Shown here: positions 847 to 25,250 of the stretch, piece by piece | Layout: every line of letters begins with the position of its first letter | How positions within the stretch are numbered: the first letter of the stretch is position 1 | Translations under genes and position numbers: made by a program | IMG/VR virus record: IMGVR_UViG_3300005573_000004 | Coordinates: 1-64,000 of that record | Source: a virus | Reading direction: 5' to 3' (one strand) | DNA length: 64,000 nt | Notes under the pieces: model-generated | Databases searched by the model: none | The model's input: the letters and a program-made list of their open reading frames with translations, nothing else | Told to the model about the DNA's origin: nothing

Positions 847-1386
847 TCACCTCCTTTCTTTTGTATATTGTTTTAATAGTCTTACCGTTGCTCTACGCTT
901 CATCTGTCTGGCCCACTCTAAAGCAGTATAACCTTCCATATCTTTAACATTAATATTAGCTCCGGCGTCTAATAATAACTTAACTACTGCAGCATACCCA
1001 TCACTACTGGCATATAGTAAAGCAGTATTTCCATAGTCATCCTTAACATTAACCTTAGCTCCTGCTTCTAATAATAACTTAACTATCTTAATACACCTAT
1101 TAAAAAACTTGTTACTACCAACAGCTACCATTAAAGCAGTCCTTCCGAAGTTGTCTGTAGCATTAACATTAGCTCCTAACTCTATTAATAATTTAACTAC
1201 TTCATAATGACTATTAGCACAAGCTACCATAAGAGCTGTCTCACCCACAACATTCCTATTATTAATATCTAATTCTAAATTAAATTCATTATATTCATTA
1301 GGATATAATTTCTTTATAGATACTAACTTAGTATAAATAGATACAGTTTTATCAATTAATAACTTCTTTAGTTGCTTTTTATTCAT
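847..1386 (-). CDS. ankyrin-repeat protein with conserved N-terminal module (~4 repeats)
   Basis: Repeated GxTALxxA...VVKLLxxAGAxVN motifs. Confidence 0.92.
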   Translation of the reverse strand: MNKKQLKKLLIDKTVSIYTKLVSIKKLYPNEYNEFNLELDINNRNVVGETALMVACANSHYEVVKLLIELGANVNATDNFGRTALMVAVGSNKFFNRCIKIVKLLLEAGAKVNVKDDYGNTALLYASSDGYAAVVKLLLDAGANINVKDMEGYTALEWARQMKRRATVRLLKQYTKERR

Positions 1387-1409
1387 TGCTTCTCATCTCC
1401 TTTTTTAAA

Positions 1410-1438
1410 ATTTTACAAAATTTAATTTAAATTGTCAA
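1410..1438 (-). promoter_or_regulatory. sigma70/sigmaA-type promoter TTGACA-N17-TAAAAT
   Basis: Near-consensus hexamers with 17-bp spacer upstream of 847..1386. Confidence 0.7.
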
Positions 1439-2262
1439 GTAATATATTCGGCTCCTGCATAAAATAATAAATCTACTACCTTAGTATACCCATTATCCTT
1501 AGCAAGTTCTAAAGCAGTAAGTCCATATCTATTTTTAACATTAACATTTGCTCCTGCTTCTACTAATAACTTTACTACTCCAAGATACCCATGCTCACTA
1601 GCTAACATAAGAGCAGTATTTCCATACCTATTCTTAACATTAATATCAGCTCCTGCTTTAATTAATAATTCTACTATTTTAGTATGTCCATAATAACTAG
1701 CTACTATAAGAGTGGTGTATCCGTCTTCATTTTTAGCATTAACATCTGCTCCAGCATCTATTAATAGTTTTACTATTTCAATATGCCCATTTGCACTAGC
1801 TTTTATAAGAGCAGTATCTCCATCTTTATCTTTAGCACTAATATCAGCTCCTGCTTCAATTAATAATTTAACTACTTCAATATTCCCCTGCTCACTAGCT
1901 TCTATAAGAGCAGTATATCCATATGTATTTTTAGCATTAATATCAGCTCCAGCATCTAATAATAACTTTACTGCTTCAGGATACCCATAATAACTAGCTA
2001 ACATAAGAGCAGTATATTCTTTTCTATTTTTAGCTTCGATATCTGCTCCAGCTTCTAATAATAGTTTTACTACATCAGTATGACCATAAACACAAGCTCT
2101 CATAAGAGCTGTTACACCTATATCATTTCCACTATCTACAGCAAGTCCAAAATTAAATTCACTATATTGTTTAGGATATAATTGCTTTATAGCCATTAAT
2201 CTAGAAAATATACTTGCAGTTTTATCAGTTAATAATTTTTCTAATTCTTCTTTTGTATTCAT
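1435..2262 (-). CDS. ankyrin-repeat protein (~7 repeats)
   Basis: 33-aa periodic ankyrin consensus; shared N-terminal module. Confidence 0.95.
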   Translation of the reverse strand: MNTKEELEKLLTDKTASIFSRLMAIKQLYPKQYSEFNFGLAVDSGNDIGVTALMRACVYGHTDVVKLLLEAGADIEAKNRKEYTALMLASYYGYPEAVKLLLDAGADINAKNTYGYTALIEASEQGNIEVVKLLIEAGADISAKDKDGDTALIKASANGHIEIVKLLIDAGADVNAKNEDGYTTLIVASYYGHTKIVELLIKAGADINVKNRYGNTALMLASEHGYLGVVKLLVEAGANVNVKNRYGLTALELAKDNGYTKVVDLLFYAGAEYIT

Positions 2263-2263
2263 T

Positions 2264-2989
2264 TTAGACCTCCTTAGCTCCGTATTGTTTTAGTAATTTT
2301 ATTATGTTAGCATTACCATACTGTTTAGCATACATTAAAGCAGTCCATCCACTTACATTCTTAGCATTAACATCTGCTCCAGCATCTATTAATAATTTAA
2401 CTATTTCAATATGTCCATAATAACTAGCTTCTAAAAAAGCAGTCCATCCACTTACATTCTTAGCATTAACATCTGCTCCTGCTTTAATTAATAATTTAAC
2501 TATATCAGTAAATCCATAATAACTAGCTTCTATAAGAACAGTCCAACCATTTCTATCTCTAGCATTTACATCTGCTCCAGCATCTATTAATAGTTTTACT
2601 ATATCAGTATAGCCATGCTCACTAGCTTTCATAAGAGCAGTATTCCCATAATTACTTTTAGCATTTACATCAGCCCCAGCATTTATTAATAATTTAACTA
2701 TTTCAGTATAGCCATAATAACTAGCTATCATTAAAGCAGTCAATCCACTTTTATTTCTAGCATTTACATCAGCTTCAGCTTCAATTAATAATTTTACTAC
2801 ATCAATATGCTTATAACTACAAGCCCTCATAAGAGCAGTATATCCTATCTCATCTTGACTATTTATATTAACGTCTAAATTAAATCTACCATATTCTTCC
2901 GGATATAATTGCTTTATAGCTACTAACCTAGAAAATTTACTTGTAGTATTATTAGCTAATAACTCTTTTAATTCTTTTTTAGTAACCAT
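2264..2989 (-). CDS. ankyrin-repeat protein (~6 repeats)
   Basis: Ankyrin consensus; shared N-terminal module. Confidence 0.95.
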   Translation of the reverse strand: MVTKKELKELLANNTTSKFSRLVAIKQLYPEEYGRFNLDVNINSQDEIGYTALMRACSYKHIDVVKLLIEAEADVNARNKSGLTALMIASYYGYTEIVKLLINAGADVNAKSNYGNTALMKASEHGYTDIVKLLIDAGADVNARDRNGWTVLIEASYYGFTDIVKLLIKAGADVNAKNVSGWTAFLEASYYGHIEIVKLLIDAGADVNAKNVSGWTALMYAKQYGNANIIKLLKQYGAKEV

Positions 2990-2999
2990 TTTAGTCCTC

Positions 3000-3620
3000 C
3001 TATCTGGCTTTATATTGTTTTAGTAATTCTACTATTTTAACATACTTATAATAACTAGCCTTCATAAGAGCAGTTTCTCCATATTTATTTTTGGCATTAA
3101 TATCTGCTCCTGCTTCTAATAATAACTTCACTATGTCAGTATGACCATATACACTAGCTTTCATAAGAGCAGTCCAACCATCTTTATTTCTAGCATTAAC
3201 ATCCGCTCCAGCTTCTAATAATAACTTTACTAGTTCAATATATCCACGTTCACTAGCTAATATAAGAGGGGTAACTCCATACGCACTTTTAACATTAACA
3301 TCAGCTCCTGCTTCTATTAACATCTTTGCTACACCAGGATTCTTACCATAAATGGATTCCATAAGAGCAGTCACATTAAATTTATTTTTAGCATTAATAT
3401 CAGCTCCAGCTTCTAATAATAACTTTACTATTTCAATCTGACCATATACACTAGCTATTATAAGAGCAGTATCTCCATCCTCATTCCGACTATTAATATC
3501 AGATTCTAAACTAAATTCACTATAGTCTTTCGGATATAACTTCTTTATAGCTACTAACCTAGAAAATTTACTTGTAGTATTATTAGCTAATAACTCTTTT
3601 AATTCTTTTATATTATCCAT
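3000..3620 (-). CDS. ankyrin-repeat protein (~5 repeats)
   Basis: Ankyrin consensus; N-terminal ELKELLANNTTSKFSRLVAIK identical to 2264..2989. Confidence 0.95.
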   Translation of the reverse strand: MDNIKELKELLANNTTSKFSRLVAIKKLYPKDYSEFSLESDINSRNEDGDTALIIASVYGQIEIVKLLLEAGADINAKNKFNVTALMESIYGKNPGVAKMLIEAGADVNVKSAYGVTPLILASERGYIELVKLLLEAGADVNARNKDGWTALMKASVYGHTDIVKLLLEAGADINAKNKYGETALMKASYYKYVKIVELLKQYKAR

Positions 3621-3643
3621 CGCTCTTACCTCCTTAGTATTAA

Positions 3644-4276
3644 CTAATGCTGGTCAAAATATACTCCTTTGATTTTACCATTCTGCTTTGCGTTCCAACA
3701 AATCTGACACCTGGTCCCACAATAATGCTCTTCTAAATCTCCAGGCATACAAGTAAAATATCCTTTCGGTGGAGTTTCACCCCTCAAAACTAAATGGGCT
3801 TTCGGAAGATCTTCTGGTGCTTCTTCAATTGTAGCATCATAATCAGTGCTAGCAAACAAAGATAAATTAGGTAGAGATTTTAATTCAGAAAAATTAAAAT
3901 ATTTACCCTTCTTTCTATACGATTTAGTATAGGCTAAAAACTTAACTTCTGGACACGCTTTTATTATCTTAACCCAAGCATTGATATATGCTTGTGAATA
4001 GAAGTCTCCAGACTCGTGTAGCCTTACTTTCTTTAACTTCCTCTCTTTTATTTCTTTAATCATCGCTTCGGCAAAGGCTTCTGTTCCTTGTGTTTCAATA
4101 AACATAAGATTTTGCATCCTTTTATTTCTTACTGTTCTGTAAAGTCTTTCAGCTTTATTTGCATAGCAAAGCTTACAAGCATCAGATTTACCTGGACAAG
4201 TTAAAGCCTGCGGCAAATTAAAGATGCCAATCTCCTTTCCTAATTTTTGATTCATACCAACTGATAATAACTTCAT
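3644..4276 (-). CDS. GP88-family (radical-SAM-like) phage protein
   Basis: FNLP..TCPG...C..CYA, RLHESGDF, F.AYTK and C-terminal C..C..C motifs. Confidence 0.7.
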   Translation of the reverse strand: MKLLSVGMNQKLGKEIGIFNLPQALTCPGKSDACKLCYANKAERLYRTVRNKRMQNLMFIETQGTEAFAEAMIKEIKERKLKKVRLHESGDFYSQAYINAWVKIIKACPEVKFLAYTKSYRKKGKYFNFSELKSLPNLSLFASTDYDATIEEAPEDLPKAHLVLRGETPPKGYFTCMPGDLEEHYCGTRCQICWNAKQNGKIKGVYFDQH

Positions 4277-4298
4277 AGAGCACCTCCTTTAATATTGT

Positions 4299-4799
4299 TT
4301 ATTGTGTTGCTCCGTAAGATTTTAAAAATTTTCCTATCTTTTCGTATAAGTTTACTTCCCACTTCTTCCCGGTTACTTTTGCTATATCCCTATAATTTAT
4401 TATATATCCATAAACAGTAGTTCCATAAGTATCTTTGATATTAACATCAGCTCCGGCATCTATTAACATCTTCATAATTTTTTTAGTAAGACGATAACCA
4501 TTTTCACGACAAAAGAAAAGGGCTATCATTAATGCTGTTTTGCCGGATTCATTTTTAATATTAACATCTGCTCCAGCTTCTAATAATAATTGTATACCAT
4601 CTAAATCTAGAATAGGCATAATAGCATTCATTAATGCTGTTGCCCCTAATTCATTCTGAGCATTAATATTAGATTCTAAACTAAGCTTGCCATATTTATC
4701 GGGATCTAATTTCTTTAAAGCCATTAGCCTAGAAGTTATACTCGCGGTCTTATCTTTTACTAAAGCTTTTAATTCATCTTCATAAGTCATTTTAATCAC
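4299..4799 (-). CDS. ankyrin-repeat protein (divergent, ~3 repeats; likely start 4790)
   Basis: GATALMNA, AGADVNIK repeats; shared N-terminal module. Confidence 0.88.
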   Translation of the reverse strand: MIKMTYEDELKALVKDKTASITSRLMALKKLDPDKYGKLSLESNINAQNELGATALMNAIMPILDLDGIQLLLEAGADVNIKNESGKTALMIALFFCRENGYRLTKKIMKMLIDAGADVNIKDTYGTTVYGYIINYRDIAKVTGKKWEVNLYEKIGKFLKSYGATQ

Positions 4800-5314
4800 C
4801 TCTCTGCTCCATATTTTAATAATAATCTTACTATATTATATTTTCTTCTACGCTCAGCCCAATCTAATGCTGTTTCCCATCTATCATTCATAGCATTAAC
4901 ATCTGCTCCTGCTTTTAATAATAATTTTACTGTTCCAATATTTCCATAATCAGCAGCTTTCATAAGAGCAGTGTTATTAAAATGATCTCTAGCATTTACA
5001 TCTGCTCCTGCTTCTAATAATAATTTTACAATTTTAGTATATCCTTCTGTGCAAGCTACTATAAGAGGAGTCCACCCATCATAATCTTTGCAATTAACAT
5101 CAGCTCCGACATCTAATAAGAATTTAACTACTCCATAATGTCCATTAAGGCAAGCTTCCAAAAGAGCTGTCCACCCTTTTGAATCTTTATTATTAATAGA
5201 TTCCATTAAATTAAATTGTTTATATTCAGGATATAATTTTTCTAAAGTTACTAACCTAGCAAATACACTAGCTCTCTTATTTTTTAGAAACCTCTTTAAT
5301 TTTAAAGCTTCCAT
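4796..5314 (-). CDS. ankyrin-repeat protein (~4 repeats)
   Basis: Ankyrin consensus; shared N-terminal module. Confidence 0.93.
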   Translation of the reverse strand: MEALKLKRFLKNKRASVFARLVTLEKLYPEYKQFNLMESINNKDSKGWTALLEACLNGHYGVVKFLLDVGADVNCKDYDGWTPLIVACTEGYTKIVKLLLEAGADVNARDHFNNTALMKAADYGNIGTVKLLLKAGADVNAMNDRWETALDWAERRRKYNIVRLLLKYGAER

Positions 5315-5316
5315 TT

Positions 5317-6261
5317 TTAACCCTCCTTTTCACTGATATAACCTTCTATTGCTTCATCCATCTCATAAGTAAAATTTGCACGATTAACTTTCTTTGCTTT
5401 TATTTTTATAACTTTCTTAGTTAAGGTATTTGAAATAACCTTGTTAATTTTGTCTTCAAACTTCTCTAACTCTATGCTAAAATCTAACTTCGAAAATTTT
5501 ATAGTAACTCCATTTCCACCATTTTCATTATTCCCACCATTTATTTTCTTAAAGCTTATTTCAAATTCAAAATCAATAGTTAAATCTAAATAACTATCAA
5601 AGGACTCTAGCTCCTCGTGAGTTAAACCAAAATCTTTTAATACTTCCTTAGTGCAAGGCATAGTAATAATTGCTTGACATTTATTTTCTGAGCCAACCCC
5701 AAATCCTTTATCACCTATAAATAAATCTACTTCTGATAACTTTTCTAACTTCTCCAATTTATTTTGAAGTTCCTTGACAGATCTTATCATAGCAAAATTA
5801 ATCATAGTTTTAGATGCTCTAGCAAACCGCTTAGCATTTCCAAAATATATTACTTTAGCTGATTTAAGGTATTGGGATAAAGCATCTCTTCTAGCTTTTA
5901 TTTTACTTGCTAGATTTGTTTTAAATATATTATCTATAAATTTAATTTTGGTTCTAATTGTTTCAAGCACTCTTATATTAGTTTCTTGTTCTAATAAAGG
6001 TTTTACTTGGTCAGGAGCATTCAATTCAGCCCAGTATAACAATATTGCGAACAATTCCGGCAACCTCATATAATATCCTAAATCAGAATCTTCTTTCGGT
6101 ATTGTATCCTTAATACTCTTATACAACAATACGACATCAGTATCTTTATTACACGCAGCACAGATATATGGAGCTAAGTCTTGTATCCTAATTCTAGATT
6201 CTACTGTCTGTAAAACTTTATCTAACCTATCCAAACCAAACAAAATAGTTGAAGTATGCAT
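5317..6261 (-). CDS. hypothetical protein, paralog family A
   Basis: N-terminal xxSTI...DTDxxLL...PxxxxxxLEQ pattern shared with neighbours; RBS. Confidence 0.6.
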   Translation of the reverse strand: MHTSTILFGLDRLDKVLQTVESRIRIQDLAPYICAACNKDTDVVLLYKSIKDTIPKEDSDLGYYMRLPELFAILLYWAELNAPDQVKPLLEQETNIRVLETIRTKIKFIDNIFKTNLASKIKARRDALSQYLKSAKVIYFGNAKRFARASKTMINFAMIRSVKELQNKLEKLEKLSEVDLFIGDKGFGVGSENKCQAIITMPCTKEVLKDFGLTHEELESFDSYLDLTIDFEFEISFKKINGGNNENGGNGVTIKFSKLDFSIELEKFEDKINKVISNTLTKKVIKIKAKKVNRANFTYEMDEAIEGYISEKEG

Positions 6262-6291
6262 AAAAACACCTCCTTTAAATTATTTTAAATT

Positions 6292-7413
6292 TTATCCGCC
6301 AATCTTTTTATATTCTACTTTAAATCCATTCTTTACGTGTTCTATTATCTGAGTAATCACATCAATAGCATAAGTATATTTATTCCCTGCCACTGCTATT
6401 CTTCCTTCATCAATAATAAAAGTTGGACCAGCATTAGCATTCAGCCAATCTACTGTTGGCAGGCTTGATTCCGCCCACCTGGTTATAGAATTTCTATAAC
6501 CTGTTAATAATTCTTTAGTTGAATCTCTGGTATGCCTTAACCAATTGAACCAAATATAGTCCACCTTTATATTAAAAAACGGAGGATAAATTGGAAGATC
6601 TTTAAATGCAAGATCTTCAGTATGCTTCCCGTTTAATTGTGAAAGTTCTACTTCAACAAAAACTGTTATAGCTCTTTCTTTAGATTCTAATCTATTTTCT
6701 ATTTGTTTAATTTCAGATCGTGTTAATGATAAAGGCACCCCTTTAATTATATCATCTAAAGGAACATCTACACTTATTCGTGGATAATCTTCTTTACGAG
6801 AGATACCATATGCATTTCTAATCCAAACATCATATTTAAGTTTAGTTAAGAATAGATTCTTTAATCCCTCAAATCCATTTACTGTAACTCCTGATTTATA
6901 ATCGTCAGGCCAATCTTTATGAATATTTGGAAATGTCTGTGTCAATAATTCATATAAAGGATGTCTTCCATTACGCCATAATATTCTTGGATATCTTTCT
7001 GTAAATTGTTTTACATACGGTAATATGGTCTTTTCAATATAAGACCATATAGGTTCACGGACAGTTGGAAGTAATACCTTCGGAACATCCTCGCAGATAC
7101 TATTAAAATATCTTCCAAGTTTAGCAGGACTAAGATCAGATTGTTCTAAAAACTTGGTAACCAATTCAGGATATTTAATTGAAGCATACTGTAATACTAT
7201 ATCCGCAACACCATATCTATCTAACTCAGTTAATAACAATTCAAGATCAGTATCCGCATCTATTAAACTAAACAATACTGGCAACGCCAAAAAACCACGT
7301 GGTCTTTGATCCCAATCTGAATCAACATCAGGATCAAAAACCGAATCAAAAACTGAATCATCTTTTCCTTTTAAAGATTGTTTTACAATTTCCATAATAG
7401 TTGAAGCATTCAT
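6292..7413 (-). CDS. hypothetical protein, paralog family A
   Basis: MNASTI...LPVLFSLIDADTDLELLL...KYPELVTKFLEQ. Confidence 0.6.
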   Translation of the reverse strand: MNASTIMEIVKQSLKGKDDSVFDSVFDPDVDSDWDQRPRGFLALPVLFSLIDADTDLELLLTELDRYGVADIVLQYASIKYPELVTKFLEQSDLSPAKLGRYFNSICEDVPKVLLPTVREPIWSYIEKTILPYVKQFTERYPRILWRNGRHPLYELLTQTFPNIHKDWPDDYKSGVTVNGFEGLKNLFLTKLKYDVWIRNAYGISRKEDYPRISVDVPLDDIIKGVPLSLTRSEIKQIENRLESKERAITVFVEVELSQLNGKHTEDLAFKDLPIYPPFFNIKVDYIWFNWLRHTRDSTKELLTGYRNSITRWAESSLPTVDWLNANAGPTFIIDEGRIAVAGNKYTYAIDVITQIIEHVKNGFKVEYKKIGG

Positions 7414-7467
7414 TGAAACACCTCCTTAAAAAGTTTTTAAAACTAACTAAATTGAACCTCCTTTCTT

Positions 7468-8505
7468 TTAATATAGATCATGGTAATCAAAATTTATAGC
7501 TCTAACTTCTTGCAATTTTTTAGATTCTAATAATATTCTAAAGCCCCAAAGACTCCCATCTAAATCATAATTATAATCATTGTCTTCATCTATTGGATGC
7601 CCTATCTGATTAAAATAGTCACGCACTTCCTTTGAATATGCTTTTAAAGTACGGCGTAGCTGCTCTGTTGTTTTATAGAATCTTCCTTTAGCATATATTT
7701 TTAACATAGATTCTTCAGCATTCACTTCTGCTTCTAATCGTGGTTCAGTTTTATATTCTTTTAATTGACGCATTAATTCATTTTTTATTTCCCATTTATA
7801 TTTCTTAAAGTATGGAGCTAAAGTTCTATCTGTATTCTGTACATGGTATATAATAAACTTTTTTCCACTGTTTTGTTTATCAAAATCATCCATAACAATA
7901 ACACGATTTATATTCTTATGCATAAACTCAGTAGTATCCCAAAACACTTTTTCTGCCGCTTCACCATTAAGTTCATCATCTGCATTATTCGTGTATATCC
8001 AATGACCATCAGATACCATAGGAAGCGTTTTTGAAAGAGATGCTACCTTTGCTACTCCAGTAGTATACGTATCATTAATAGTAATAAAAGTATCAGGCTT
8101 ATCCCAACCTGCTAATTGTGGATTTGTATTAAAAATATGAGTTAATCCTATCTTTGCAATCTCTTTAAACTCTGCTTTACGCGCAAGAATTTTACCCTCT
8201 TCCGGAAAAAACTGTGGACAAAATAGATACAGTTGTTCAGTTAAAGTTAAAGAATTTAACAAGTTCTTAAATCCTTCTTCATCCCCTGCTATATAGAATA
8301 ACATAGGTAATACATACGCTATACTATGAGCATTTATTTTATCGTATGCCTGACCAGCTTTCATATGCAAATAAATTAACCTTCTAACCACTATTGGCTC
8401 ATGATACCATTTTGGGATTGAAGTAAAAGCACAGGACGAATTAGGCATTAACTGATCCAAAGCACTAAAAGAAACATTAAACTCCTTTTGTTTAAGTTCT
8501 TCCAT
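7468..8505 (-). CDS. hypothetical protein, distant member of family A
   Basis: LPMLFYIAGDEEGFKNLL...FFPEE resembles LPVLFSLIDADTDLELLL...KYPEL. Confidence 0.5.
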   Translation of the reverse strand: MEELKQKEFNVSFSALDQLMPNSSCAFTSIPKWYHEPIVVRRLIYLHMKAGQAYDKINAHSIAYVLPMLFYIAGDEEGFKNLLNSLTLTEQLYLFCPQFFPEEGKILARKAEFKEIAKIGLTHIFNTNPQLAGWDKPDTFITINDTYTTGVAKVASLSKTLPMVSDGHWIYTNNADDELNGEAAEKVFWDTTEFMHKNINRVIVMDDFDKQNSGKKFIIYHVQNTDRTLAPYFKKYKWEIKNELMRQLKEYKTEPRLEAEVNAEESMLKIYAKGRFYKTTEQLRRTLKAYSKEVRDYFNQIGHPIDEDNDYNYDLDGSLWGFRILLESKKLQEVRAINFDYHDLY

Positions 8506-8517
8506 GATTGCACCTCC

Positions 8518-9648
8518 TTAATTAGATTTTGGAAAGAAGTTTTTTATTTCTTGGAATATTTTAGATTCACTTGCAGTTTCTATTATATCACCATCTATAG
8601 TTTCATTGTGTATTGGAATAACTTTTACTTTCAACGCTTTTAAAGCTTTAACTACATCATTAGTTGCATCTTTAAAGTAATTGTTTATTTTATTTATCAT
8701 AGCCTTTCTTGTTTTTATTACCTCTTCTGAAGGTTTCGCATCCTCAAATAGATCTATCTTTTCATTAAAGAAATAATTAAGTTTATATAGATCCCTCCCT
8801 TTTTTAGAAACAAATTTTATACTATTATCTAACACATCTTTAAATACTTTTCCATCAGCTTGAAATCTTACTTGAAATGTTTTTTGAGCACTACTTAAAT
8901 TGCTTATTGCATATCTTATATTTTTAGGCAAGCTTTTAAATCCAGGCATACTTTTTAAATTAAGAACATCCGCACCAAGACGAAAAATTATCTTTATTGG
9001 TTCAGTTCTACCAAGATAAACTGGAGATACAATTGTTTTAATACTACTTAGAAGCTTCTTATAATTCTCTTTAGTCACCGTGATATCATCAGTTATATCA
9101 ATAATTAGATCCTCTGTTAAATATAATCCTTCACATTCATGCTCTATATAATCAGATATTCTACTTGCTAAAGAGCTATACTCTTTATTAATAAATACTA
9201 AACCAGTTTGTAATTTCATCCATTCTTTTAAACCATTTATATAGACATCTAATATCTCTTGTATTATTGGTTTAATTTCTTTTTGCACTACATTAAGAGA
9301 GTATTCATGTAGTTTCATTGTAGATTTACTATGCTTCATTCCCAAATCTTTTAGGAAAGAATCTATAGCATCAAAATCTACAACATCATATAAAAAGGCT
9401 TTAGCTTTTTCAGGATAATGTAATAACATATATTTAAGCACTGCTAAATAAATATCACCAATATCATATCCTCTTTTAGTATGTTCCATTTTATATAGTT
9501 CCCTAACCAATAAATCAATATCAGTATTAGGACCTATAAGCATTAATATGTCTTCTGGCTCTAATTTATTATATGCTTGCATAGTTTTTAATTGTTTATC
9601 CTGTGCTTCAAGAATACTTAAAATAGTAGAAGCATTTAATTCTGACAT
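8518..9648 (-). CDS. hypothetical protein, paralog family A
   Basis: LNASTIL...NTDIDLL...HYPEKAKAFL. Confidence 0.6.
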   Translation of the reverse strand: MSELNASTILSILEAQDKQLKTMQAYNKLEPEDILMLIGPNTDIDLLVRELYKMEHTKRGYDIGDIYLAVLKYMLLHYPEKAKAFLYDVVDFDAIDSFLKDLGMKHSKSTMKLHEYSLNVVQKEIKPIIQEILDVYINGLKEWMKLQTGLVFINKEYSSLASRISDYIEHECEGLYLTEDLIIDITDDITVTKENYKKLLSSIKTIVSPVYLGRTEPIKIIFRLGADVLNLKSMPGFKSLPKNIRYAISNLSSAQKTFQVRFQADGKVFKDVLDNSIKFVSKKGRDLYKLNYFFNEKIDLFEDAKPSEEVIKTRKAMINKINNYFKDATNDVVKALKALKVKVIPIHNETIDGDIIETASESKIFQEIKNFFPKSN

Positions 9649-9705
9649 AGTTATTACCTCCTTTTAGGTTTTAGGCGAGCGGAGTAAACCGCCCGCCTTT
9701 ATTCT

Positions 9706-10232: not shown

Positions 10233-11279
10233 TTATTTTTTAGCTCCTGCTTTTTTCAAGAGTTCTACTATTTCAGTATGCCCAAATTTCTTTGCCAACC
10301 TTAAAGCAGTTTCTCCATCGTTATTTCTAGCATTTACATCAGCTCCTGCTTTTATTAATAGCTTCACTACATCAGTATGTCCATAGGTACTAGCCCATAT
10401 TAAAGCAGTCCATCCCCGTCTATCTTTAGCATTTACATCCGCTCCTGCTTTAATTAATAATTTTGCTATTTTAGTATTCAAATGTGCACTAGCAGATACT
10501 AAAGCAGCATTACCCCGTTTATCTTTAGCGTTCATATCCGCTCCTGCTTTAATTAATAGTTTTACTACTTCAGTATGTCCACGATCACTAGCTTCTAAAA
10601 GAGCAGTATTTCCATTTATAGTTTTAGCATTAACATCAGCTCCAGCTTTTAATAATAATTTTACCACTTCAGTTCTACCATCTATACTAGCCTCAATAAG
10701 AGCAGTTTCTCCATCTATAGTTTTAGCATTAACATCAGCTCCAGCTTCTATTAACTTTTTAACCAAGTCAGTTTGACCCTCTGCACTAGCACACATTAAA
10801 GCAGTATATCCATCTTTATCTTTAGCATTTACATCCGCTCCTGCTTTAATTAATAATTTTGCTACTTTAGTATCCAAAGTTCCACTAGCTATTATTAAAG
10901 CAGTATCACCCCGTCTATCTTTAGCATTAATATCCGCTCCTGCTTTTAATAATAATTTTACTACTTTAGGATGCCCGTTAAGACTAGCCAACATCAAAGC
11001 AGTTTCTCCCAAAGTATATTCCTTAGCATTTACATCAGCTCCTGCTTTAATTAATAATTCTACTACTTCAGTTAACCCGTGTCCACTAACATGCATTAAA
11101 GCAGTTTCTCCACTATCATTTATTACAGTATTAACTTTATCTGGAAATGCATTAGCAATCTGATAATCAGCCCATAGCTTTTTTAGAGCCATCAATCTAG
11201 AATATATACTTGCAGTTCTATCTTTTACTAGTTTTGATAAATCTTTCTGATATGGAGTAAGTTCGTCCATATATAACAC
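10233..11279 (-). CDS. ankyrin-repeat protein (~9 repeats)
   Basis: Highly regular KAGADVNAK..GxTALxxAS repeats; shared N-terminal module. Confidence 0.95.
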   Translation of the reverse strand: MLYMDELTPYQKDLSKLVKDRTASIYSRLMALKKLWADYQIANAFPDKVNTVINDSGETALMHVSGHGLTEVVELLIKAGADVNAKEYTLGETALMLASLNGHPKVVKLLLKAGADINAKDRRGDTALIIASGTLDTKVAKLLIKAGADVNAKDKDGYTALMCASAEGQTDLVKKLIEAGADVNAKTIDGETALIEASIDGRTEVVKLLLKAGADVNAKTINGNTALLEASDRGHTEVVKLLIKAGADMNAKDKRGNAALVSASAHLNTKIAKLLIKAGADVNAKDRRGWTALIWASTYGHTDVVKLLIKAGADVNARNNDGETALRLAKKFGHTEIVELLKKAGAKK

Positions 11280-11716: not shown

Positions 11717-11946
11717 TATTCTACCTCCTTATTAGTTTTAGACCAATCAATTTCTTGAATCTTATACGTTTCTCTTAACAACATCTTCGCAGTTCCAATC
11801 ACAGCCCCAGTCTTACTCCAAGTTAATGCTACTGTCTTGTCATCAAATAACTGAGGCTGTATTCTTATTCCAACTTCGTTTAATAAATCTTCTAATACGA
11901 TATCACCTACACCAATCTTTACATCTTTGTTTTTCATAGTTATCAC
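11716..11946 (-). CDS. hypothetical protein
   Basis: Packed ORF with RBS. Confidence 0.55.
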   Translation of the reverse strand: MITMKNKDVKIGVGDIVLEDLLNEVGIRIQPQLFDDKTVALTWSKTGAVIGTAKMLLRETYKIQEIDWSKTNKEVE

Positions 11947-12371
11947 CTCCTTTTAGCTCCATATTGTTTTAGTAATTTTACTATTTTAATATAACCAGAA
12001 TCAATAGCCTTCACAAGAGCAGTATTTCCCCATTTATCTTTAGCATTAACATCAGCTCCAGCTTCTAATAATAACTTTACTATTTCAGTATGTCCATAGT
12101 CGCTAGCCCACTTTAAAGCAGTATCTCCATCTATAGTTTTAGCATTTACATCTGCTCCTGCTTCCAATAATAACTTCACTACTTCAATATGCCCATACAT
12201 ACTAGCCCACATTAAAGCAGTATCTCCATCTTTATCGCAACTATTAATATCAAATTCTAAATCAAATCTACCATATTCTTCAGGATATAACTTCCTTATA
12301 GCCATTAATCTAGTATAAATAGATGCAGTATCATCAGCTAATACTTTCTTTAATTCTTCTTTAGTAATCAT
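11943..12371 (-). CDS. ankyrin-repeat protein (3 repeats)
   Basis: Ankyrin consensus; shared N-terminal module. Confidence 0.94.
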   Translation of the reverse strand: MITKEELKKVLADDTASIYTRLMAIRKLYPEEYGRFDLEFDINSCDKDGDTALMWASMYGHIEVVKLLLEAGADVNAKTIDGDTALKWASDYGHTEIVKLLLEAGADVNAKDKWGNTALVKAIDSGYIKIVKLLKQYGAKRR

Positions 12372-15064: not shown

Positions 15065-15736
15065 TTATTTTGTCTCACCTCCCTTCTCATTATGTATCTT
15101 CATATACTCTAACAGCTTTTCATACATAAATTCACCAGGCTTTATATCTGCTCCTGCCTTTACCAGCTCTAACATTACTGAAAAAGCATTCATTCTACTG
15201 GCATATGCTAGAGCGGTTTGTCCTAATTTATTCTTTATATTAACATCGGCTCCAGCAGATATTAGAGCTTTGACTATATCAACTCTATCATCAAAATTAT
15301 AGGCAGCTTTCATAAGAGCAGTGTCTCCGTCATTATCTTGAGCATTTATATCTGCTCCTGCCTTTATTAAAAGATTAACTATTGTATCACTATTATACAT
15401 ACAAGCAAACATAAGTGGACTTGTTCCAAAATAATCTTTGGCATTTATATCAGCTCCTGCTTCTATGAGAAGCTCTGCAACCTTAGTATGCCAATGTTCA
15501 CAAGTAATCATAAGAGCTGTTCTATTATATTCATTTTTTGCATCAATATCAATTTCTAAATCAAATTCTTCATAAATATCTGGATATAATTTTTTTAATG
15601 CCACAATACGAGAGAATAGACTGGCATTTTTGTCTAATAATAATTCTAATAATTCATTCCGATTATACCGATTATCCATAATAACACCCCTTTCAATAAA
15701 ATTATCTGAAAACTTTATATACTGTTTCTTTTCCAA
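15065..15736 (-). CDS. ankyrin-repeat protein (~5 repeats; likely start at MDNRYN)
   Basis: Ankyrin consensus; shared N-terminal module. Confidence 0.92.
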   Translation of the reverse strand: MEKKQYIKFSDNFIERGVIMDNRYNRNELLELLLDKNASLFSRIVALKKLYPDIYEEFDLEIDIDAKNEYNRTALMITCEHWHTKVAELLIEAGADINAKDYFGTSPLMFACMYNSDTIVNLLIKAGADINAQDNDGDTALMKAAYNFDDRVDIVKALISAGADVNIKNKLGQTALAYASRMNAFSVMLELVKAGADIKPGEFMYEKLLEYMKIHNEKGGETK

Positions 15737-16132: not shown

Positions 16133-16150
16133 AAAGCACCTCCTATAGGA

Positions 16151-16629: not shown

Positions 16630-17106
16630 TTATTTCAATCTTACGTCAGGAAGGATCTTAACTGTGCTGTCCATCTTGACAACACAATTAATCCCCCTCT
16701 TCTGCAACGCCGGTACTAAGAGGAACATTAGCACCGGAGTGCAGTCTATGAAGGCGATTTTATCCTCGCCTTCAGATATGTTTTGTAAATATATATTATC
16801 CATTCTTTTCAGGATATCATCAACAATATCCTGAAAGAAACTATAGTAATCCCCATTGGGATCACTATAGATAACTTCACTTTCCGTCTTTTCAGACGGA
16901 AAGTAATTATACTTTGTGAAGTTAATAATCTCTACGTCATCCCATTTGGGAGTGGCGTAGAACGTAGTTGCATTATCTATGATTATCACTCCTTCCTTTC
17001 CCGTGGTTGGATCTGCTTTATCCCCCATAAAGCAGTCCAAAATTTTTTCTTTCAGCTCTGGACTCCAGCGTTCTGCTGGAGTATTTGAAAAATTAAAAAG
17101 CTTCAT
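16630..17106 (-). CDS. divergent Csx15/Csx20-like paralog, copy 1
   Basis: LFNFSNTPAERWSPE aligns to INLSNHPSNKWSQE; C-terminal AFID...LVPALQKRGI.CV aligns to MIQG...LVNELLAQGKVPV. Confidence 0.5.
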   Translation of the reverse strand: MKLFNFSNTPAERWSPELKEKILDCFMGDKADPTTGKEGVIIIDNATTFYATPKWDDVEIINFTKYNYFPSEKTESEVIYSDPNGDYYSFFQDIVDDILKRMDNIYLQNISEGEDKIAFIDCTPVLMFLLVPALQKRGINCVVKMDSTVKILPDVRLK

Positions 17107-17161
17107 ATTACACCTCCTTTAGTTGCCTATGTATTATTTCCCCCATAGGCAGGGGAGAATT

Positions 17162-17464
17162 TTATTTATTATTTAATATTAATTTCTTGACAAACATATT
17201 AAGGGCATTTACTAAATACCCTTTTAAATGCATAATATAATATGTAGCGTATTCACCTCCTTCCGATCCGAAATCAACTTTCTTTACGAAGTAAAATGGA
17301 TCCTTCAGCTGTGCTGAAGAATCCTTTACTTCTACTACTGAATATGCAGGCCCTGGAATATATATCTCACAGGGACCTGTAAATCCTAACGCTTTGGAGC
17401 CTATAATATGCTCCAAAGATTTTTGTAACTCTTCTTTGCTTGAAAATTCTTTTAATTCTATCAT
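17162..17464 (-). CDS. small early protein, family B
   Basis: Near-identical to 18568..18870; RBS and pseudoknot leader. Confidence 0.7.
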   Translation of the reverse strand: MIELKEFSSKEELQKSLEHIIGSKALGFTGPCEIYIPGPAYSVVEVKDSSAQLKDPFYFVKKVDFGSEGGEYATYYIMHLKGYLVNALNMFVKKLILNNK

Positions 17465-18035: not shown

Positions 18036-18512
18036 TTATTTTAACCTTACTTCTGGTAAAACTTTAAATGTGTTGTCAAAACGGACAACACATTTAATTT
18101 CTCTTCTCTGCAACGCCGGTACTAAGAAGAACATCAGTACCGGAGTGCAGTCTATGAAGGCGATTTTATCCTCGCCTTCAGATATGTTTTGTAAATATAT
18201 ATTATCCATTCTTTTCAGGATATCATCAACAATATCCTGAAAGAAACTATAGTAATCCCCATTGGGATCACTATAGATAACTTCACTTTCCGTCTTTTCA
18301 GACGGAAAGTAATTATACTTTGTGAAGTTAATAATCTCTACGTCATCCCATTTGGGAGTGGCGTAGAACGTAGTTGCATTATCTATGATTATCACTCCTT
18401 CCTTTCCCGTGGTTGGATCTGCTTTATCCCCCATAAAGCAGTCCAAAATTTTTTCTTTCAGCTCTGGACTCCAGCGTTCTGCTGGAGTATTTGAAAAATT
18501 AAAAAGCTTCAT
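18036..18512 (-). CDS. divergent Csx15/Csx20-like paralog, copy 2
   Basis: Identical to 16630..17106 except in the last ~30 aa. Confidence 0.5.
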   Translation of the reverse strand: MKLFNFSNTPAERWSPELKEKILDCFMGDKADPTTGKEGVIIIDNATTFYATPKWDDVEIINFTKYNYFPSEKTESEVIYSDPNGDYYSFFQDIVDDILKRMDNIYLQNISEGEDKIAFIDCTPVLMFFLVPALQRREIKCVVRFDNTFKVLPEVRLK

Positions 18513-18567
18513 ATTACACCTCCTTTAGTTGCCTATGTATTATTTCCCCCATAGGCAGGGGAGAATT

Positions 18568-18870
18568 TTATTTATTATTTAATATTAATTTCTTGACAAA
18601 CATATTAAGGGCATTTACTAAATACCCTTTTAAATGCATAATATAATATGTAGCGTATTCACCTCCTTCCGATCCGAAATCAACTTTCTTTACGAAGTAA
18701 AATGGATCCTTCAGCTGTGCTGAAGAATCCTTTACTTCTACTACTGAATATGCAGGCCCTGGAATATATATCTCACAGGGACCTGTAAATCCTAACGCTT
18801 TGGAGCCTATAATATGCTCCAAAGATTTTTGTAACTCTTCAACTGTGTTAAATTCTTTTAATTCTATCAT
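18568..18870 (-). CDS. small early protein, family B
   Basis: Duplicate of 17162..17464, offset 1406 bp. Confidence 0.7.
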   Translation of the reverse strand: MIELKEFNTVEELQKSLEHIIGSKALGFTGPCEIYIPGPAYSVVEVKDSSAQLKDPFYFVKKVDFGSEGGEYATYYIMHLKGYLVNALNMFVKKLILNNK

Positions 18871-20446: not shown

Positions 20447-20764
20447 CTATTTTTTTAGAATGACCTTATTTATTAAGAATTCTATGGCACTATTTAAAAA
20501 TTCCGGCTTTGTAATAACTTCAAAGCCTGAGTCCATTATTTCATCATCCTGGTAGATCCTCTCTACCAGGAAATAATTTATTTTATCAGTCATTATTATT
20601 ATTTTATCTTTTTCCTCAGAGGAGGAAAAAGATAAAATTTTTTCCATACAGTCCTCTATGAGGACTGTATTATGTTCCCACCAACGGTGGGAATCTATCA
20701 GCCCAACCTTTTGGTTGGATAGCAAATCTTTAATGTCGTTTGAAACTTTTACTTTTACATACAT
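20447..20764 (-). CDS. small early protein (distant family B), copy 1
   Basis: Paralog of 21363..21680; RBS and pseudoknot leader. Confidence 0.7.
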   Translation of the reverse strand: MYVKVKVSNDIKDLLSNQKVGLIDSHRWWEHNTVLIEDCMEKILSFSSSEEKDKIIIMTDKINYFLVERIYQDDEIMDSGFEVITKPEFLNSAIEFLINKVILKK

Positions 20765-21362: not shown

Positions 21363-21680
21363 CTATTTTTTTAGAATGACCTTATTTATTAGGAATTCTA
21401 AGGCACTTTCTAAAAACTCAGGCTTTGTAATAACTTCAAAGCCGGAATCAGTTTCTTCATTATCATCCTGGTAGATCCTCTCTACCAGGAAATAATTTAA
21501 TTTATCAGTCATTATTATTTTATCTTTATCCTCCTCTGAGTAGGAGGATAAAACTCCTCCATCGCAATCTACGTAGTATATTGTATTATGTTCCCACCAA
21601 CGGTTGGAACCTGTCATTCCAACCTTTTGGTTGGATAGCAAATCTTTAATGTCGTTTGAAACTTTTACTTTTACATACAT
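21363..21680 (-). CDS. small early protein (distant family B), copy 2
   Basis: Paralog of 20447..20764. Confidence 0.7.
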   Translation of the reverse strand: MYVKVKVSNDIKDLLSNQKVGMTGSNRWWEHNTIYYVDCDGGVLSSYSEEDKDKIIMTDKLNYFLVERIYQDDNEETDSGFEVITKPEFLESALEFLINKVILKK

Positions 21681-23496: not shown

Positions 23497-23531
23497 GCCT
23501 ACGTATATTTTTTCTCCCCGTAGGCTGGGAG
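23497..23531 (-). promoter_or_regulatory. type-B pseudoknot element upstream of speH
   Basis: CTCCC A GCCTACG GGGAG AAAAAATATA CGTAGGC. Confidence 0.75.
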
Positions 23532-23627
23532 CAAAAGAAAGGTAGGAGTGAGTAAAACTAGTATATTATTCCTCTGATCCCATTAATGATATCATATACC
23601 ATTTCCTTTTCATCCTCAGTAAGAGGC

Positions 23628-23730
23628 GTGAACCTACCTCTGTCTAAAGGCAAAGGCTTCTTGCTTCTATCGAGCGGCATTGTTGCACCTACTCTCCACA
23701 AGCGTTAATTTCCTACGTTCCATAGGTATT
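23628..23730 (-). mobile_element. orphan IS200/IS605 right end / omegaRNA scaffold relic
   Basis: TACCTATGGAACGTAGGAAATTAACGCTTGTGGAG...TCGATAGAAGCAAGAAGCCTTTGCCTTTAGACAGAGGTAGGTTCAC; 3' part resembles the tnpB end at 50633-50664. Confidence 0.7.
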
Positions 23731-24019
23731 TTGTTTCTAATTCCTCATCCTTCTTTTTATAGTTTTTATAAGTGGAAAATAAACCAATAATCATAAAAAT
23801 AAAAGATATAACTGATAAACCCAAATAAAATTTTGCTTCAACACTAACTTTAACCAAAAAAGCATTGTAAATTTTATCAACCGTTACCCCAAGCCTGTTT
23901 GTTAATTCCTGTAAAACTTCTGTTAATTTATCCATTTTATATCTCCTATTTATTTTTAAATTTGCCGTTGCTTCGCTACGCTGGGGCAACGGCCAAACCC
24001 TCGATAGGGTCTTTACCAC
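23705..24019 (-). CDS. membrane protein (likely start MDKLTEV), probably truncated by the IS relic
   Basis: TM segment; AGGAG RBS before the internal Met; stop lies inside the IS-end relic. Confidence 0.5.
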   Translation of the reverse strand: MVKTLSRVWPLPQRSEATANLKINRRYKMDKLTEVLQELTNRLGVTVDKIYNAFLVKVSVEAKFYLGLSVISFIFMIIGLFSTYKNYKKKDEELETKYLWNVGN

Positions 24020-24052
24020 AGGTAAAAACCTCGATCGTTGTCATCTTTTAAT

Positions 24053-24502
24053 TTAATTTTTTGCTCCATATCGTTTTAATAATTTTACTATTTCCTTATG
24101 GCCATATACAGAAGCTAAATCTATCAATGAATCTCCATCTTGAGTTCTGACGTTTATATCAGCTCCAGATTCTAAAAGAAATTTAGCTATCTCTTTATTT
24201 CCATTCAAACACGCTACAGTAAGTGCCGTCCAACAAGCATTGTCTTTCGCATTTATATCTGAACCTGCTTCTAGAAAAAATTTTACTAAGTCTAGGTTTT
24301 GTTCAGCACATGCCTTCATTAAGGCTGTAGTTCCAAGAACCGTTCTATTGTCAATATTGGATATTAAATTAAATTCTTCATATTCCGGATATAATTTTAC
24401 CAATGCAACAAGTTTTGCCACTAAACTAGCATTTTTATCATTTAATAAATTTAATAATTCATCTTTAACTTTTTGTGATTTGATGGCTTTCTTTGGCTCC
24501 AT
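24053..24502 (-). CDS. ankyrin-repeat protein (3 repeats)
   Basis: Ankyrin consensus; shared N-terminal module. Confidence 0.92.
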   Translation of the reverse strand: MEPKKAIKSQKVKDELLNLLNDKNASLVAKLVALVKLYPEYEEFNLISNIDNRTVLGTTALMKACAEQNLDLVKFFLEAGSDINAKDNACWTALTVACLNGNKEIAKFLLESGADINVRTQDGDSLIDLASVYGHKEIVKLLKRYGAKN

Positions 24503-25250
24503 ATGACTCCAATAATTTTATCATTTCAATATTATTACTAACTCTGGCTTTGTCTAAAACCGTATACCCAGTATTATCTATCTCATTTACATTAGCTCCC
24601 GCTTTTAATAATATTTTTACTACGTCAATGCTATTAACCATACAAGCTAATGCAAGAGGAGTTCGGTTCCGTAAATCCTTAGCATTTAAATCAGCTCCAG
24701 CCTTTATTAACGTTTCTATAACTTTTGTGTCTCCAGAAACACAAGCTAACATAAGAGGAGTTTCAGAGTCATTGTTTCTATCATTGGCATTTGCTCCAAA
24801 TTTTAATAATAATTTGACTATAGCATCATTCCCGTGTAGACTGGCTAACATAATAGCAGTATTACCATTTTTATCTCTACTATTTACATCTGCTCCTACT
24901 TCTAATAAAAATTTTACTATTTTTACGTGATCGTACGAGCTAGCTAATTGAAGTGCAGTCCATCCAGCCAATTGAGTTTTCCAAATTGCATCAATATTTA
25001 CTTCTAATGCAAAAACGCTATATAATGGATATAACTTCTTTAACGCTACTAATCTAGACGTAATACTAGCATTTTTATTATTAAAAAGTTCCAGCAATTC
25101 CTTCCTTTCTTCCTTACTCATAACATTTTTATCATCTATATAGTGATTTGGTATTATTTCTTTTATTTCCTCTAATTCTTTGCGTCTTTTCGCTTTTAAA
25201 AGACTTGCTACACTATCATATTTTTTTGATTTCCTTGAAGTTTTACTCAC
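24465..25250 (-). CDS. ankyrin-repeat protein (~5 repeats)
   Basis: Ankyrin consensus; shared module begins at EERKELLELF. Confidence 0.92.
   Translation of the reverse strand: MSKTSRKSKKYDSVASLLKAKRRKELEEIKEIIPNHYIDDKNVMSKEERKELLELFNNKNASITSRLVALKKLYPLYSVFALEVNIDAIWKTQLAGWTALQLASSYDHVKIVKFLLEVGADVNSRDKNGNTAIMLASLHGNDAIVKLLLKFGANANDRNNDSETPLMLACVSGDTKVIETLIKAGADLNAKDLRNRTPLALACMVNSIDVVKILLKAGANVNEIDNTGYTVLDKARVSNNIEMIKLLESYGAKESHQITKS

Follow-up and report, generated by a model that had tools for sequence, protein, structure and literature searches.

Large viral paralog families of ankyrin-repeat (ANK) proteins with a constant terminal module are known from poxviruses and giant viruses (ANK-PRANC/F-box), where they are clustered in plastic regions and relatives differ in their numbers of both genes and repeats; the poxvirus ANK-PRANC proteins deliver their targets to SCF ligases. 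ANK-repeat proteins are also encoded by phages, among them the sponge 'Ankyphage' (ANKp), Wolbachia phage WO and the Megaira MAnkyphage, and two of the ankyphage ANKs have N-terminal signal peptides (10.1101/608950). Within single ANK domains, N-terminal caps (the DARPin N-cap and atypical units such as that of KANK1) are placed directly before the first full repeat, and the composition of the N-cap is known to govern how stable the ANK domain is (PMC8683736).

The uncultured phage considered here (complete genome 149,961 bp; the window is a stretch of 64,000 nucleotides, positions 1–64,000 of IMG/VR record IMGVR_UViG_3300005573_000004) differs from the other ankyrin-bearing phages in its 21 ANK genes, which take up 9.7% of its bases, and in provenance: one contig, 98.75% identical, derives from hot-spring sediment of Obsidian Pool and not from an animal host. 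Its ANK set shares with the poxvirus-type families the paralogy, the constant terminal module and the clustering in a plastic region of variable gene and repeat number, and poxvirus and giant-virus ANK proteins are structural matches to it. In contrast, the phage module is N-terminal and modelled within the repeat stack, the host, presumably bacterial, would have no SCF ligase, and Pfam finds no PRANC or F-box in 11 of the proteins (E≤0.01) or in the module (E≤10). With the ANK caps the module has in common its place before the first full repeat, two predicted helices of ~9–11 residues, the second of them superposable on its counterpart in the DARPin N-cap, and a terminal D-(V/I)-N hairpin; it is, however, ~12 residues longer, carries an aromatic linker and, on the searches described below, appears in one phage lineage only, with no detectable sequence similarity to caps over residues 1–39.

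We suggest, with a probability of about 0.7, that this ~45-aa module serves one ANK paralog family as an N-terminal cap peculiar to the lineage. The reading is favoured by rigid packing on repeat 1 in the models, the superposition of helix 2 on DARPins, the conservation pattern, an evolution no slower than that of the ANK framework, and a distant relative in which helix 2 and the aromatic linker are kept but helix 1 is not.

The ankyrin genes and their common N-terminus

Eleven minus-strand ANK genes lie at 847–25250 (Table 1), and the module heads all 11 proteins (consensus ELKxLLxDKTASIxSRLVALKKLYPxxYxxFNLExxIN; mean column identity 57% in the alignment of all 11). A 45-position profile of it scores 70–86 bits per copy (E 1e-20 to 1e-25) in a genome search, which adds two copies just past the window's left edge, at genome positions 141735–141863 and 142482–142607; the module is thereby common to 13 of the 21 ANK proteins, the remaining eight (the sister ANKs) being without it. 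Pfam Ank, Ank_2, Ank_4 and Ank_5 are matched by every one of the 11 proteins (best E 1e-79 to 1e-80). The match table of one member has the first ANK match beginning at about residue 39–48, C-terminal to the module. The proteins are 142, 149, 166, 172, 179, 206, 223, 241, 261, 275 and 348 aa long, with 3 to ~9 repeats spaced mostly by exactly 33 aa. The genes look real because AAGGAGG lies ~7–12 nt 5' of most of them and pooled regional dN/dS is 0.3–0.6. From the Shine–Dalgarno positions, the listed GTG/TTG starts of g05, g07 and g09 probably lie a few codons too far upstream.

Table 1. Module-bearing ANK genes of the window (module positions in window coordinates; SD, Shine–Dalgarno)
Gene	Coordinates	Strand	Product	Module	Remarks
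g01	847..1386	-	179 aa, 4 repeats	1246-1380, 82.4 bits	Pfam Ank_2 E 1.8e-31; SD AAGGAG upstream; missing from related contig L004
g02	1435..2262	-	275 aa, 7 repeats	2119-2253, 84.4 bits	L004 ortholog 176 aa, exactly 99 aa (3 repeats) shorter
g03	2264..2989	-	241 aa, 6 repeats	2846-2980, 86.5 bits	
g04	3000..3620	-	206 aa, 5 repeats	3477-3611, 85.6 bits	L004 ortholog 177 aa, minus one 33-aa repeat
g05	4299..4799	-	166 aa (~163 aa from internal ATG)	4647-4781, 80.9 bits	Degenerate repeats and non-ANK C-terminal part; ortholog P0008 75% identical
g06	4796..5314	-	172 aa, 4 repeats	5177-5308, 74 bits	
g07	10233..11279	-	348 aa, ~9 repeats	11112-11249 (variant), 70.3 bits	Probably 345 aa, from ATG at codon 4; counterpart in L085 called as 345 aa
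g08	11943..12371	-	142 aa, 3 repeats	12228-12362	AF2-modelled member
g09	15065..15736	-	223 aa as listed	15527-15661, 80.2 bits	Probably 204 aa, from internal ATG; no SD ahead of listed TTG; orthologs P0005 and P0014 201 aa
g10	24053..24502	-	149 aa, ~3 repeats	24335-24466, behind 12-aa leader, 73.3 bits	Module dN/dS 0.12 against L087 ortholog
g11	24465..25250	-	261 aa, 5 repeats	24966-25106, behind 48-aa basic leader, 76.5 bits	GGGAGGAG precedes GTG start (SD check); orthologs P0009 and P0018 likewise 261 aa

An earlier sequence-only reading had described 11 ANK proteins at this place with a common N-terminal module, and the ORFs, Pfam matches and module alignment agree with it for all 11, as they do for the lengths it quoted (142, 172, 206, 241, 275 and 348 aa) and for the repeat spacing and number. 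Its statement that all 11 begin with one motif requires an amendment, in that g07 carries the module but diverges from the motif past KKL and is without YP..Y..F. The repertoire of paralogous binders that it proposed stands, and is larger than was thought (21 genes, 13 with the module); the docking function attached to it gained no support, as discussed below.

Across 70 canonical repeats (GxTALMxASxxGHTxVVKLLIxAGADVNAKDxx) entropy is high at positions 2, 7, 10, 11, 13–15, 32 and 33, in agreement with the fixed framework and variable hairpin and helix-1 positions noted earlier; mapped on the DARPin register, these are mostly what we take to be the hairpin tip and the helix-1 face randomised in DARPins. 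Such a pattern is generic to ANK repeats. Between relatives, whole 33-aa repeats and whole genes are gained or lost, and amino-acid change is faster at the hairpin and helix-1 positions. The 13 genes would be duplicates of one ancestor within a plastic, co-oriented block of ~34 kb, and their common module would be due to that descent.

Distribution and conservation of the module

Searched against 1.84 billion (1.84e9) protein representatives, as had been proposed, the module profile finds ~10 clusters only, all N-terminal on ANK proteins; the 12 matches at E≤1e-3 comprise 10 such N-termini, one truncated 48-aa fragment and one spurious repeat translation, so that the module was found nowhere apart from ANK repeats among these representatives. 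No Pfam family matches it even at E≤10, and on this evidence the module is confined to one phage lineage. At its C-terminal end, columns 37–44 align by hhalign to ADVNAKDx of the repeat profile in the correct register (probability 2.4%), and phmmer alignments to PDB ankyrins start at residue 40–41, placing fDINSCD on xDVN or xDIN; judged from these alignments, the module ends in a normal ANK hairpin. Since hhalign, phmmer against PDB and Pfam detect no similarity of residues 1–39 to ANK repeats or caps, the label 'cap' is founded on predicted structure and not on homology.

Considering 22 sequences, the columns of lowest entropy are L4, L7, S14, A21, L25, L19, P27, Y30, F33, L35, I39 and N40; hydrophobic or small residues make up most of the conserved positions, and variation falls in columns 1, 2, 5, 6 and 9 of helix 1, the outer face of which varies, and in the loop columns. 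In helix 2 the conserved residues lie on two i/i+3/i+4 stripes (15-18/19-22-25/26 and 14-17-21-24), a helical periodicity which suggests that helix 2 is packed on two sides and that the conserved residues of the module may be buried.

Between orthologs the module differs by 22%, the ANK framework by 15% and the ANK variable positions by 24%, with pooled dN of 0.118, 0.130 and 0.250, respectively. Paralog identity is 0.42 in the module vs 0.45 in repeat 1, and 0.54 vs 0.45 for the ungapped 24-codon helical core. By these measures the module is under no more constraint than the ANK framework and is evolving no more slowly. In the dN/dS comparison suggested in the sequence-only reading, made on values pooled by region, module dN is close to that of the framework, and no region has a lower dN/dS than the module (0.31, from 131 module codons only, vs 0.57 and 0.60).

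The low dN/dS could fit a docking handle, in which the constant module would attach to a single shared partner and the variable ANK surface would deliver different host proteins, and so could the basic residues R/K18 (the sole invariantly basic column in the 22 sequences) and K24, less so K23, which may be exposed. We consider such a handle unlikely, given that helix 1 varies on its outer face, that K23 is replaced by E and K24 by N in distant relatives, that amino-acid divergence of the module is at least that of the framework, and that no F-box or PRANC is matched. The docking to a shared partner that had been inferred from the letters found no support: the module is always on ANK proteins, forms a rigid cap in the models, shows core-type conservation and is under no extra constraint. 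The alternative mentioned at the same time, that the module is just an N-cap, fits best, with a predicted capping unit on repeat 1 and mainly core-type conserved positions.

Third-codon-position identity is somewhat higher in the module core than in repeat 1 (0.61 vs 0.51), which, with the active recombination indicated by changes in repeat number and gene content, would agree with a 5' segment kept at the DNA level for cassette recombination or regulation, and not for the protein. We regard this as extremely improbable, considering that orthologs have diverged at synonymous sites as much in the module (dS 0.375) as elsewhere (0.23–0.41), that its dN/dS is 0.31, that conservation tracks helix periodicity and that the paralogs align along whole genes (66–79% DNA identity), beyond the 5' end alone.

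Predicted structure of the N-terminus

The AF2 model of g08 (pLDDT 95.5, pTM 0.89; module blocks 89–93) has helices at residues 4–12, 18–28 and 30–33 and a loop to residue 51, followed by the first ANK repeat; an ESM Atlas model of the identical sequence has pTM 0.82, and the AF2 model of the divergent g12 (pLDDT 95.3, pTM 0.90) has the same two helices at 3–13 and 19–29. As modelled, the module is a helix-loop-helix rigidly packed against repeat 1. Many DARPin chains superpose on g08 from residue 21–24 on (rmsd 1.2 Å over 108 residues, Z 20–21), with model residue 24 on chain residue 29, within the second helix of the N-cap, and the KANK1 ANK-repeat domain (ANKRD; 5yaz) superposes on model residues 1–138 (2.6 Å over 119 residues).

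We propose that in the capping unit the conserved D-K-T-A-S turn connects the two helices, after which come a short aromatic linker (L-Y-P-x-x-Y-x-x-F) and a canonical ANK beta-hairpin (x-D-I-N-x-x-D/N) leading into repeat 1, and that the unit would shield the first repeat on its hydrophobic side. A shared helical hairpin that terminates the repeat stack might be pictured as an oligomerisation element, by which ANK paralogs would form homo- or heterodimers and hence bivalent binders. This appears highly improbable, because in the high-confidence monomer models the conserved hydrophobic stripes would already be buried against repeat 1 and helix 1 is variable and charged on its other face.

Relatives, other N-termini and neighbouring genes

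In a distant relative (L002, 242 aa) helix 2, L-Y-P and the NID hairpin are retained, and a different segment replaces helix 1. Its contig, of 4.4 kb only, has ANK genes alone in common with the phage and no neighbouring gene, a point against a docking partner encoded nearby. Among 50,697 deposited phage records, 29 match, most at few places and, in phage WO records only, at many; tblastn with g03 against the same records gives ANK-repeat matches only, nearly all from residue 38 on.

Of the eight sister ANKs, two to four have an ordinary N-cap (L-F/L-x-A-x-x-x-D/N-x-x-x-V-x-x-L-x-x-x-G-A-D/N-V/I-N) resembling that of DARPins, and five (o3, o5–o8) have a hydrophobic signal or anchor (Kyte–Doolittle 15-mer maximum 2.2–3.4), paralleling the signal peptides of the ankyphage ANKs. 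The ordinary cap has 25 aa; the 13 paralogs and their relatives nevertheless keep the longer module, a point against the capping reading. By hydropathy scan, none of the 13 module proteins has a hydrophobic N-terminal stretch (maximum 15-mer ≤1.6 in every member), in line with the earlier statement that signal peptides are absent. We picture the module proteins, conditionally, as soluble and cytoplasmic, with variable concave surfaces by which they would bind different, probably bacterial-host, proteins during infection, and the hydrophobic sister subfamily as one that would be exported.

When each internal repeat is paired with its nearest neighbour, the repeats do not sort by presence of the module on their protein (27 vs 25), so the class of an ANK is defined by its N-terminus, which marks 13 of 21 otherwise similar proteins. 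This would suit a docking handle and would also fit an address tag by which the proteins would enter the capsid and be co-injected, leave by a non-Sec export route or reach a particular subcellular site: discrete N-terminal classes sit on similar repeat bodies, most members have the module within 2–12 residues of their start codon, and it would parallel the hydrophobic N-termini of the five sister ANKs. Such an address seems very improbable, since the module is modelled as a folded part of the ANK domain and not as a free peptide, occurs on no other protein type and stands behind 48 residues in g11, and since five ORFs at 104.6–109.3 kb begin with another leader, MSF[IV]NFK[KR]. A capsid-targeting leader of the T4 CTS type was rejected, the module being on ANK proteins only and not on unrelated proteins.

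Between g08 and g09 lie a DUF2201_N metallopeptidase/vWA gene and an AAA+-like gene, a setting that would favour a docking handle, whose candidate partners would be the phage pair nearby (MoxR-type AAA+ and HExxH/vWA) or, on the host side, a chaperone or protease. That the 13 module-bearing ANKs are substrate adaptors docking on one host protease/unfoldase or on this phage pair is decidedly unlikely; if true, they would be a phage counterpart of the poxvirus ANK-PRANC adaptors, a programmable system for the removal of host proteins. No toxin family was found by Pfam among the neighbouring genes. Matches to ANKs of Mycobacterium prophages are annotated as ANK immunity proteins of polymorphic toxin systems.

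Ankyrin genes and their N-terminal classes

The whole-genome scan places 21 ankyrin-repeat (ANK) genes in this phage, amounting to 14.5 kb or 9.7% of its genome, and 13 of them carry the module, an N-terminal segment of about 45 residues, which is absent from the other eight. ORFs, Pfam and alignment agree on the eleven ANK ORFs with a common N-terminal module that had been recognized in the sequence-only reading, and a 45-position profile, which gives 70–86 bits for every copy, located two additional copies. Since L004 (a contig of a related phage) reads from window base 1 directly into genome base 149961, and so spans both genome ends, the two 'ends' form one continuous, co-oriented ANK-rich block of ~34 kb; a strong AAGGAGG Shine–Dalgarno site precedes most of the ANK genes. 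The window covers bases 1–64000 of the 149,961-bp genome. Completeness of this genome is indicated by its direct terminal repeat of 121 bp and by CheckV, which puts it at 100%; the genome is of the tailed-phage type and has ~31% G+C. Its family A DNA polymerase is ~30% identical to Caudoviricetes polymerases, and reading of the translations further identified GroEL/GroES, a DnaB-type helicase, RecA, SbcCD, and an anaerobic ribonucleotide reductase with its activase.

The 21 near-consensus ANK proteins fall into three N-terminal classes (own cap, ordinary cap, and signal or anchor). Because single repeats of module and non-module genes are intermixed in a nearest-neighbour comparison (27 vs 25), it is the N-terminus that defines these classes; the same analysis was uninformative as to separate lineages of module and non-module ANK bodies. 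The eight module-less genes (o1–o8) are an informative internal control. Between two and four of them (o1, o2, o6, o8) have an ordinary N-cap, L-F/L-x-A-x-x-x-D/N-x-x-x-V-x-x-L-x-x-x-G-A-D/N-V/I-N, similar to that of DARPins (one such sister ANK lies at genome 142640-143164), and o5 has a looser form of the pattern. In five (o3, o5, o6, o7, o8) an initial MIKKLL or MFKKLL leads into a strongly hydrophobic stretch, with a maximum KD 15-mer of 2.2–3.4 as against ≤1.6 in all 13 module proteins, and these N-termini look like signal peptides or signal anchors. The N-terminus of o4 is chimeric, resembling a C-cap fused to MIKKLL.

Coordinates of the ANK genes and neighbouring features
Feature	Position	Strand	Remarks
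Module-bearing ANK genes g01–g11	window 847-25250	minus	
Ten further ANK genes	genome 141351-149797 (L001, the phage's own sequence: 6352-14798)	co-oriented	just left of window across 121-bp terminal repeat; 2 with module
Additional module copies	genome 141735-141863; 142482-142607		found by profile
Module-less ANK genes o1–o8	genome 142640-149797		
o4	genome 144771-145646		
TTTTGTAAAAT copies	window 1410-1420; genome 143185-143195, 144144-144154, 146466-146476	minus	
Four large ORFs between ANK genes	window 5317-9648		314, 373, 345, 376 aa; no Pfam match
HExxH DUF2201_N + vWA-like protein	window 12386-14960, between g08 and g09		452 aa; DVSGS MIDAS-like motif
Walker-A-like GDPGIGKS protein	window 12386-14960, between g08 and g09		382 aa
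Duplicated 158-aa + 100-aa gene pair	window 16630-17464 vs 18036-18870		
Duplicated 105-aa gene	window 20447-20764 vs 21363-21680		
Anaerobic ribonucleotide reductase ORF; IS605-type TnpB	window 42263-45262 and 50638-51792		reductase 999 aa
MSF(I/V)NFK(K/R) ORFs/internal starts	genome 104664-109340	plus	five

Predicted structure and distribution of the module

The AF2 prediction for g08 (142 aa; alignment of 21 sequences; pLDDT 95.5, pTM 0.89) puts two helices (residues 4–12 and 18–28) and a short third (30–33) in the module, followed by a loop up to residue 51 and then by the helices of repeat 1 (52–59 and 62–70). For the divergent g12, which has no YP..Y..F motif in its module, the same two helices were predicted (3–13 and 19–29; pLDDT 95.3, pTM 0.90), with a less confident linker, and ESM Atlas provides an independent g08 model (pTM 0.82). 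The g08 model superposes on DARPins at an rmsd of 1.2 Å over 108 residues (Z about 20), and with many DARPin chains its residue 24 falls on chain residue 29, inside the second helix of the N-cap; for the KANK1 ankyrin domain (5yaz) the superposition covers residues 1–138 (2.6 Å over 119 residues). In sequence, only the module end, x-D-I-N-x-x-D/N, aligns to ANK repeats, in the register of A-D-V-N-A-K-D. Residues 1–39 matched nothing known by sequence, the helical part had no similarity to a double-repeat profile (hhalign), an ESM Atlas search with residues 1–48 retrieved nothing more specific than helical hairpins of generic type (HTH, TPR; scores ≤0.77), and a BFVD fold search gave nothing beyond generic viral ANK proteins. 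Considering the models, superpositions and sequence comparisons together, the module is predicted to be an N-cap in place, size and packing, with a sequence of its own; the aromatic linker makes it ~12 residues longer. Thus 'just an N-cap', the fallback in the sequence-only reading, has become the best-supported interpretation, and we suggest, with a probability of roughly 0.7, that the module is an N-terminal cap peculiar to this family, whose members inherited it through duplication.

The profile search that had been proposed for the module was run against 1.84 billion protein-cluster representatives (E≤1e-3) and gave 12 matches, all metagenomic and in clusters of 1–4 members: ten are ANK proteins of 133–261 aa with the module N-terminal, and the other two are a 48-aa truncated fragment and a spurious repeat translation. 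None of 33 pattern matches in IMG/VR was confirmed (the window's own record perhaps lay outside that scan), and no Pfam family matched the module even at E≤10. Few deposited phage genomes encode ANK repeats: tblastn with g03 matched 29 of 50,697 records (Wolbachia WO, Megaira 'MAnkyphage', and Leptospira, Acinetobacter, Enterococcus and Mycobacterium prophages), in nearly all cases from query residue 38 or later, i.e. behind the module. Since most of the matching records show only few places, this phage appears to have an exceptionally large repertoire. From these outcomes the module is real and, as judged by the sequences searched, restricted to one lineage, where it always accompanies ANK repeats; it is apparently an N-cap to which no sequence elsewhere is related. 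The stability of DARPins is limited by the design of their caps, and the module, which offers consensus-like ANK stacks a different and compact N-cap, could therefore interest protein engineers.

Sequence change in module and repeats

Among 22 module sequences entropy is lowest at columns L4, L7, S14, A21, L25, L19, P27, Y30, F33, L35, I39 and N40, and the only invariantly basic column is R/K18; columns 1, 2, 5, 6 and 9 of helix 1 and most linker columns vary. The conserved residues of helix 2 form a hydrophobic stripe and a stripe of small residues, both with i/i+3/i+4 spacing, a periodicity that would suit packing on helix 1 and repeat 1. Module conservation is not unusual in degree. Mean pairwise identity among the 13 paralogues is 0.42 for the module (0.54 for its 24-residue helical core) and 0.45 for repeat 1, and in five orthologous pairs 22% of residues differ in the module, 15% in the ANK framework and 24% at ANK variable positions. 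In three orthologue pairs dN (Nei–Gojobori) is 0.118, 0.130 and 0.250, respectively, and dN/dS, in what is a small sample (131 module codons), is 0.31, 0.57 and 0.60.

This low module dN/dS, the conservation of a few basic residues, and persistence of the module although an ordinary cap is available in the same genome are what might be expected if it were a 'common handle' docking one shared partner, as had been proposed. The present evidence nevertheless includes nothing positive for such docking and lends the proposal no support, and we consider it improbable. Oligomerization through the module, or a role of its segment at the DNA level, are minor possibilities.

The most distant relative, L002, has one ANK protein with a full module (K23 replaced by E) and a neighbouring one in which, of the module, just helix 2, L-Y-P and the NID hairpin remain; none of the other genes on this 4.4-kb contig resembles this phage. 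Closer relatives are L085 (98.75% identical to window 5065–16510) and L087 and L004 (~88% in aligned parts). In L004, an ENA contig compared with window 1–4580, the g02 orthologue is shorter by exactly 99 aa (three repeats), that of g04 by 33 aa (one repeat) and that of g03 by 59 aa, and g01 is missing, so that repeat number and gene content vary between close relatives. The high-entropy repeat positions are 2, 7, 10, 11, 13–15, 32 and 33. They make up the binding face usual for ANK repeats, on the hairpin and helix 1, in agreement with the claim of a DARPin-like variable surface, but such variation is general to ANK repeats and not special here.

Putative targets, host and neighbouring elements

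We suggest that the module proteins would act as cytoplasmic binders with diversifying surfaces, beside an exported sister ANK class, and that the phage family would work like the ANK multigene families of poxviruses and giant viruses. The ANK repertoire of this phage is a natural, evolving binder library, whose targets are likely to be bacterial and to lie in two compartments of the cell. Pfam found no PRANC or F-box domain in the family, which argues against adaptors of that kind, and the 13 module proteins, having no signal peptide in a hydropathy scan, differ from the secreted Ankyphage type. Phage ANK repeats have mostly been discussed for phages of animal symbionts; since nothing here points to an animal-associated host, we take bacterial targets as the simpler assumption.

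The L085 contig derives from IMG metagenome 3300017461, one of five hot-spring sediment samples from Obsidian Pool, Yellowstone (PMC6421429). Proteome composition (IVYWREL fraction 0.395) points to a host that is mesophilic or at most mildly thermophilic, with the usual rough formula giving a growth temperature near 35 °C; despite the sample's origin, we have on this value rejected, for now, the idea that the near-consensus repeats and the elaborate cap reflect thermophily. TnpB, whose homologues (up to 53% identity) occur in bacterial and archaeal genomes, was uninformative as to the host, since its best match is a sediment Actinomycetota MAG and the matches after it are scattered across phyla. 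The gene lies at the junction of the leftward and rightward gene blocks, and the reductase ORF contains an apparent intein-like insertion.

That the module might tag ANK proteins for capsid packaging is less likely, given that a different leader, MSF[IV]NFK[KR], is common to five ORFs at 104.6–109.3 kb; this leader, unrelated to the ANK module, is itself a candidate for capsid targeting. The 11-mer TTTTGTAAAAT has four minus-strand copies, each a short way upstream of one of the ANK genes g01, o1, o2 and o5, whereas the plus strand has only a single copy genome-wide; the 11-mer may represent a promoter-like element or a junction. Three of the four large ORFs resemble one another weakly in the N-terminal ~90 residues (blastp E 0.001–0.009, six-sequence database). 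The GDPGIGKS protein had no Pfam match at E≤1e-3, and its arrangement with the DUF2201_N/vWA-like gene recurs in L085. Between g09 and g10, small-gene cassettes encoding near-identical proteins are duplicated in tandem.
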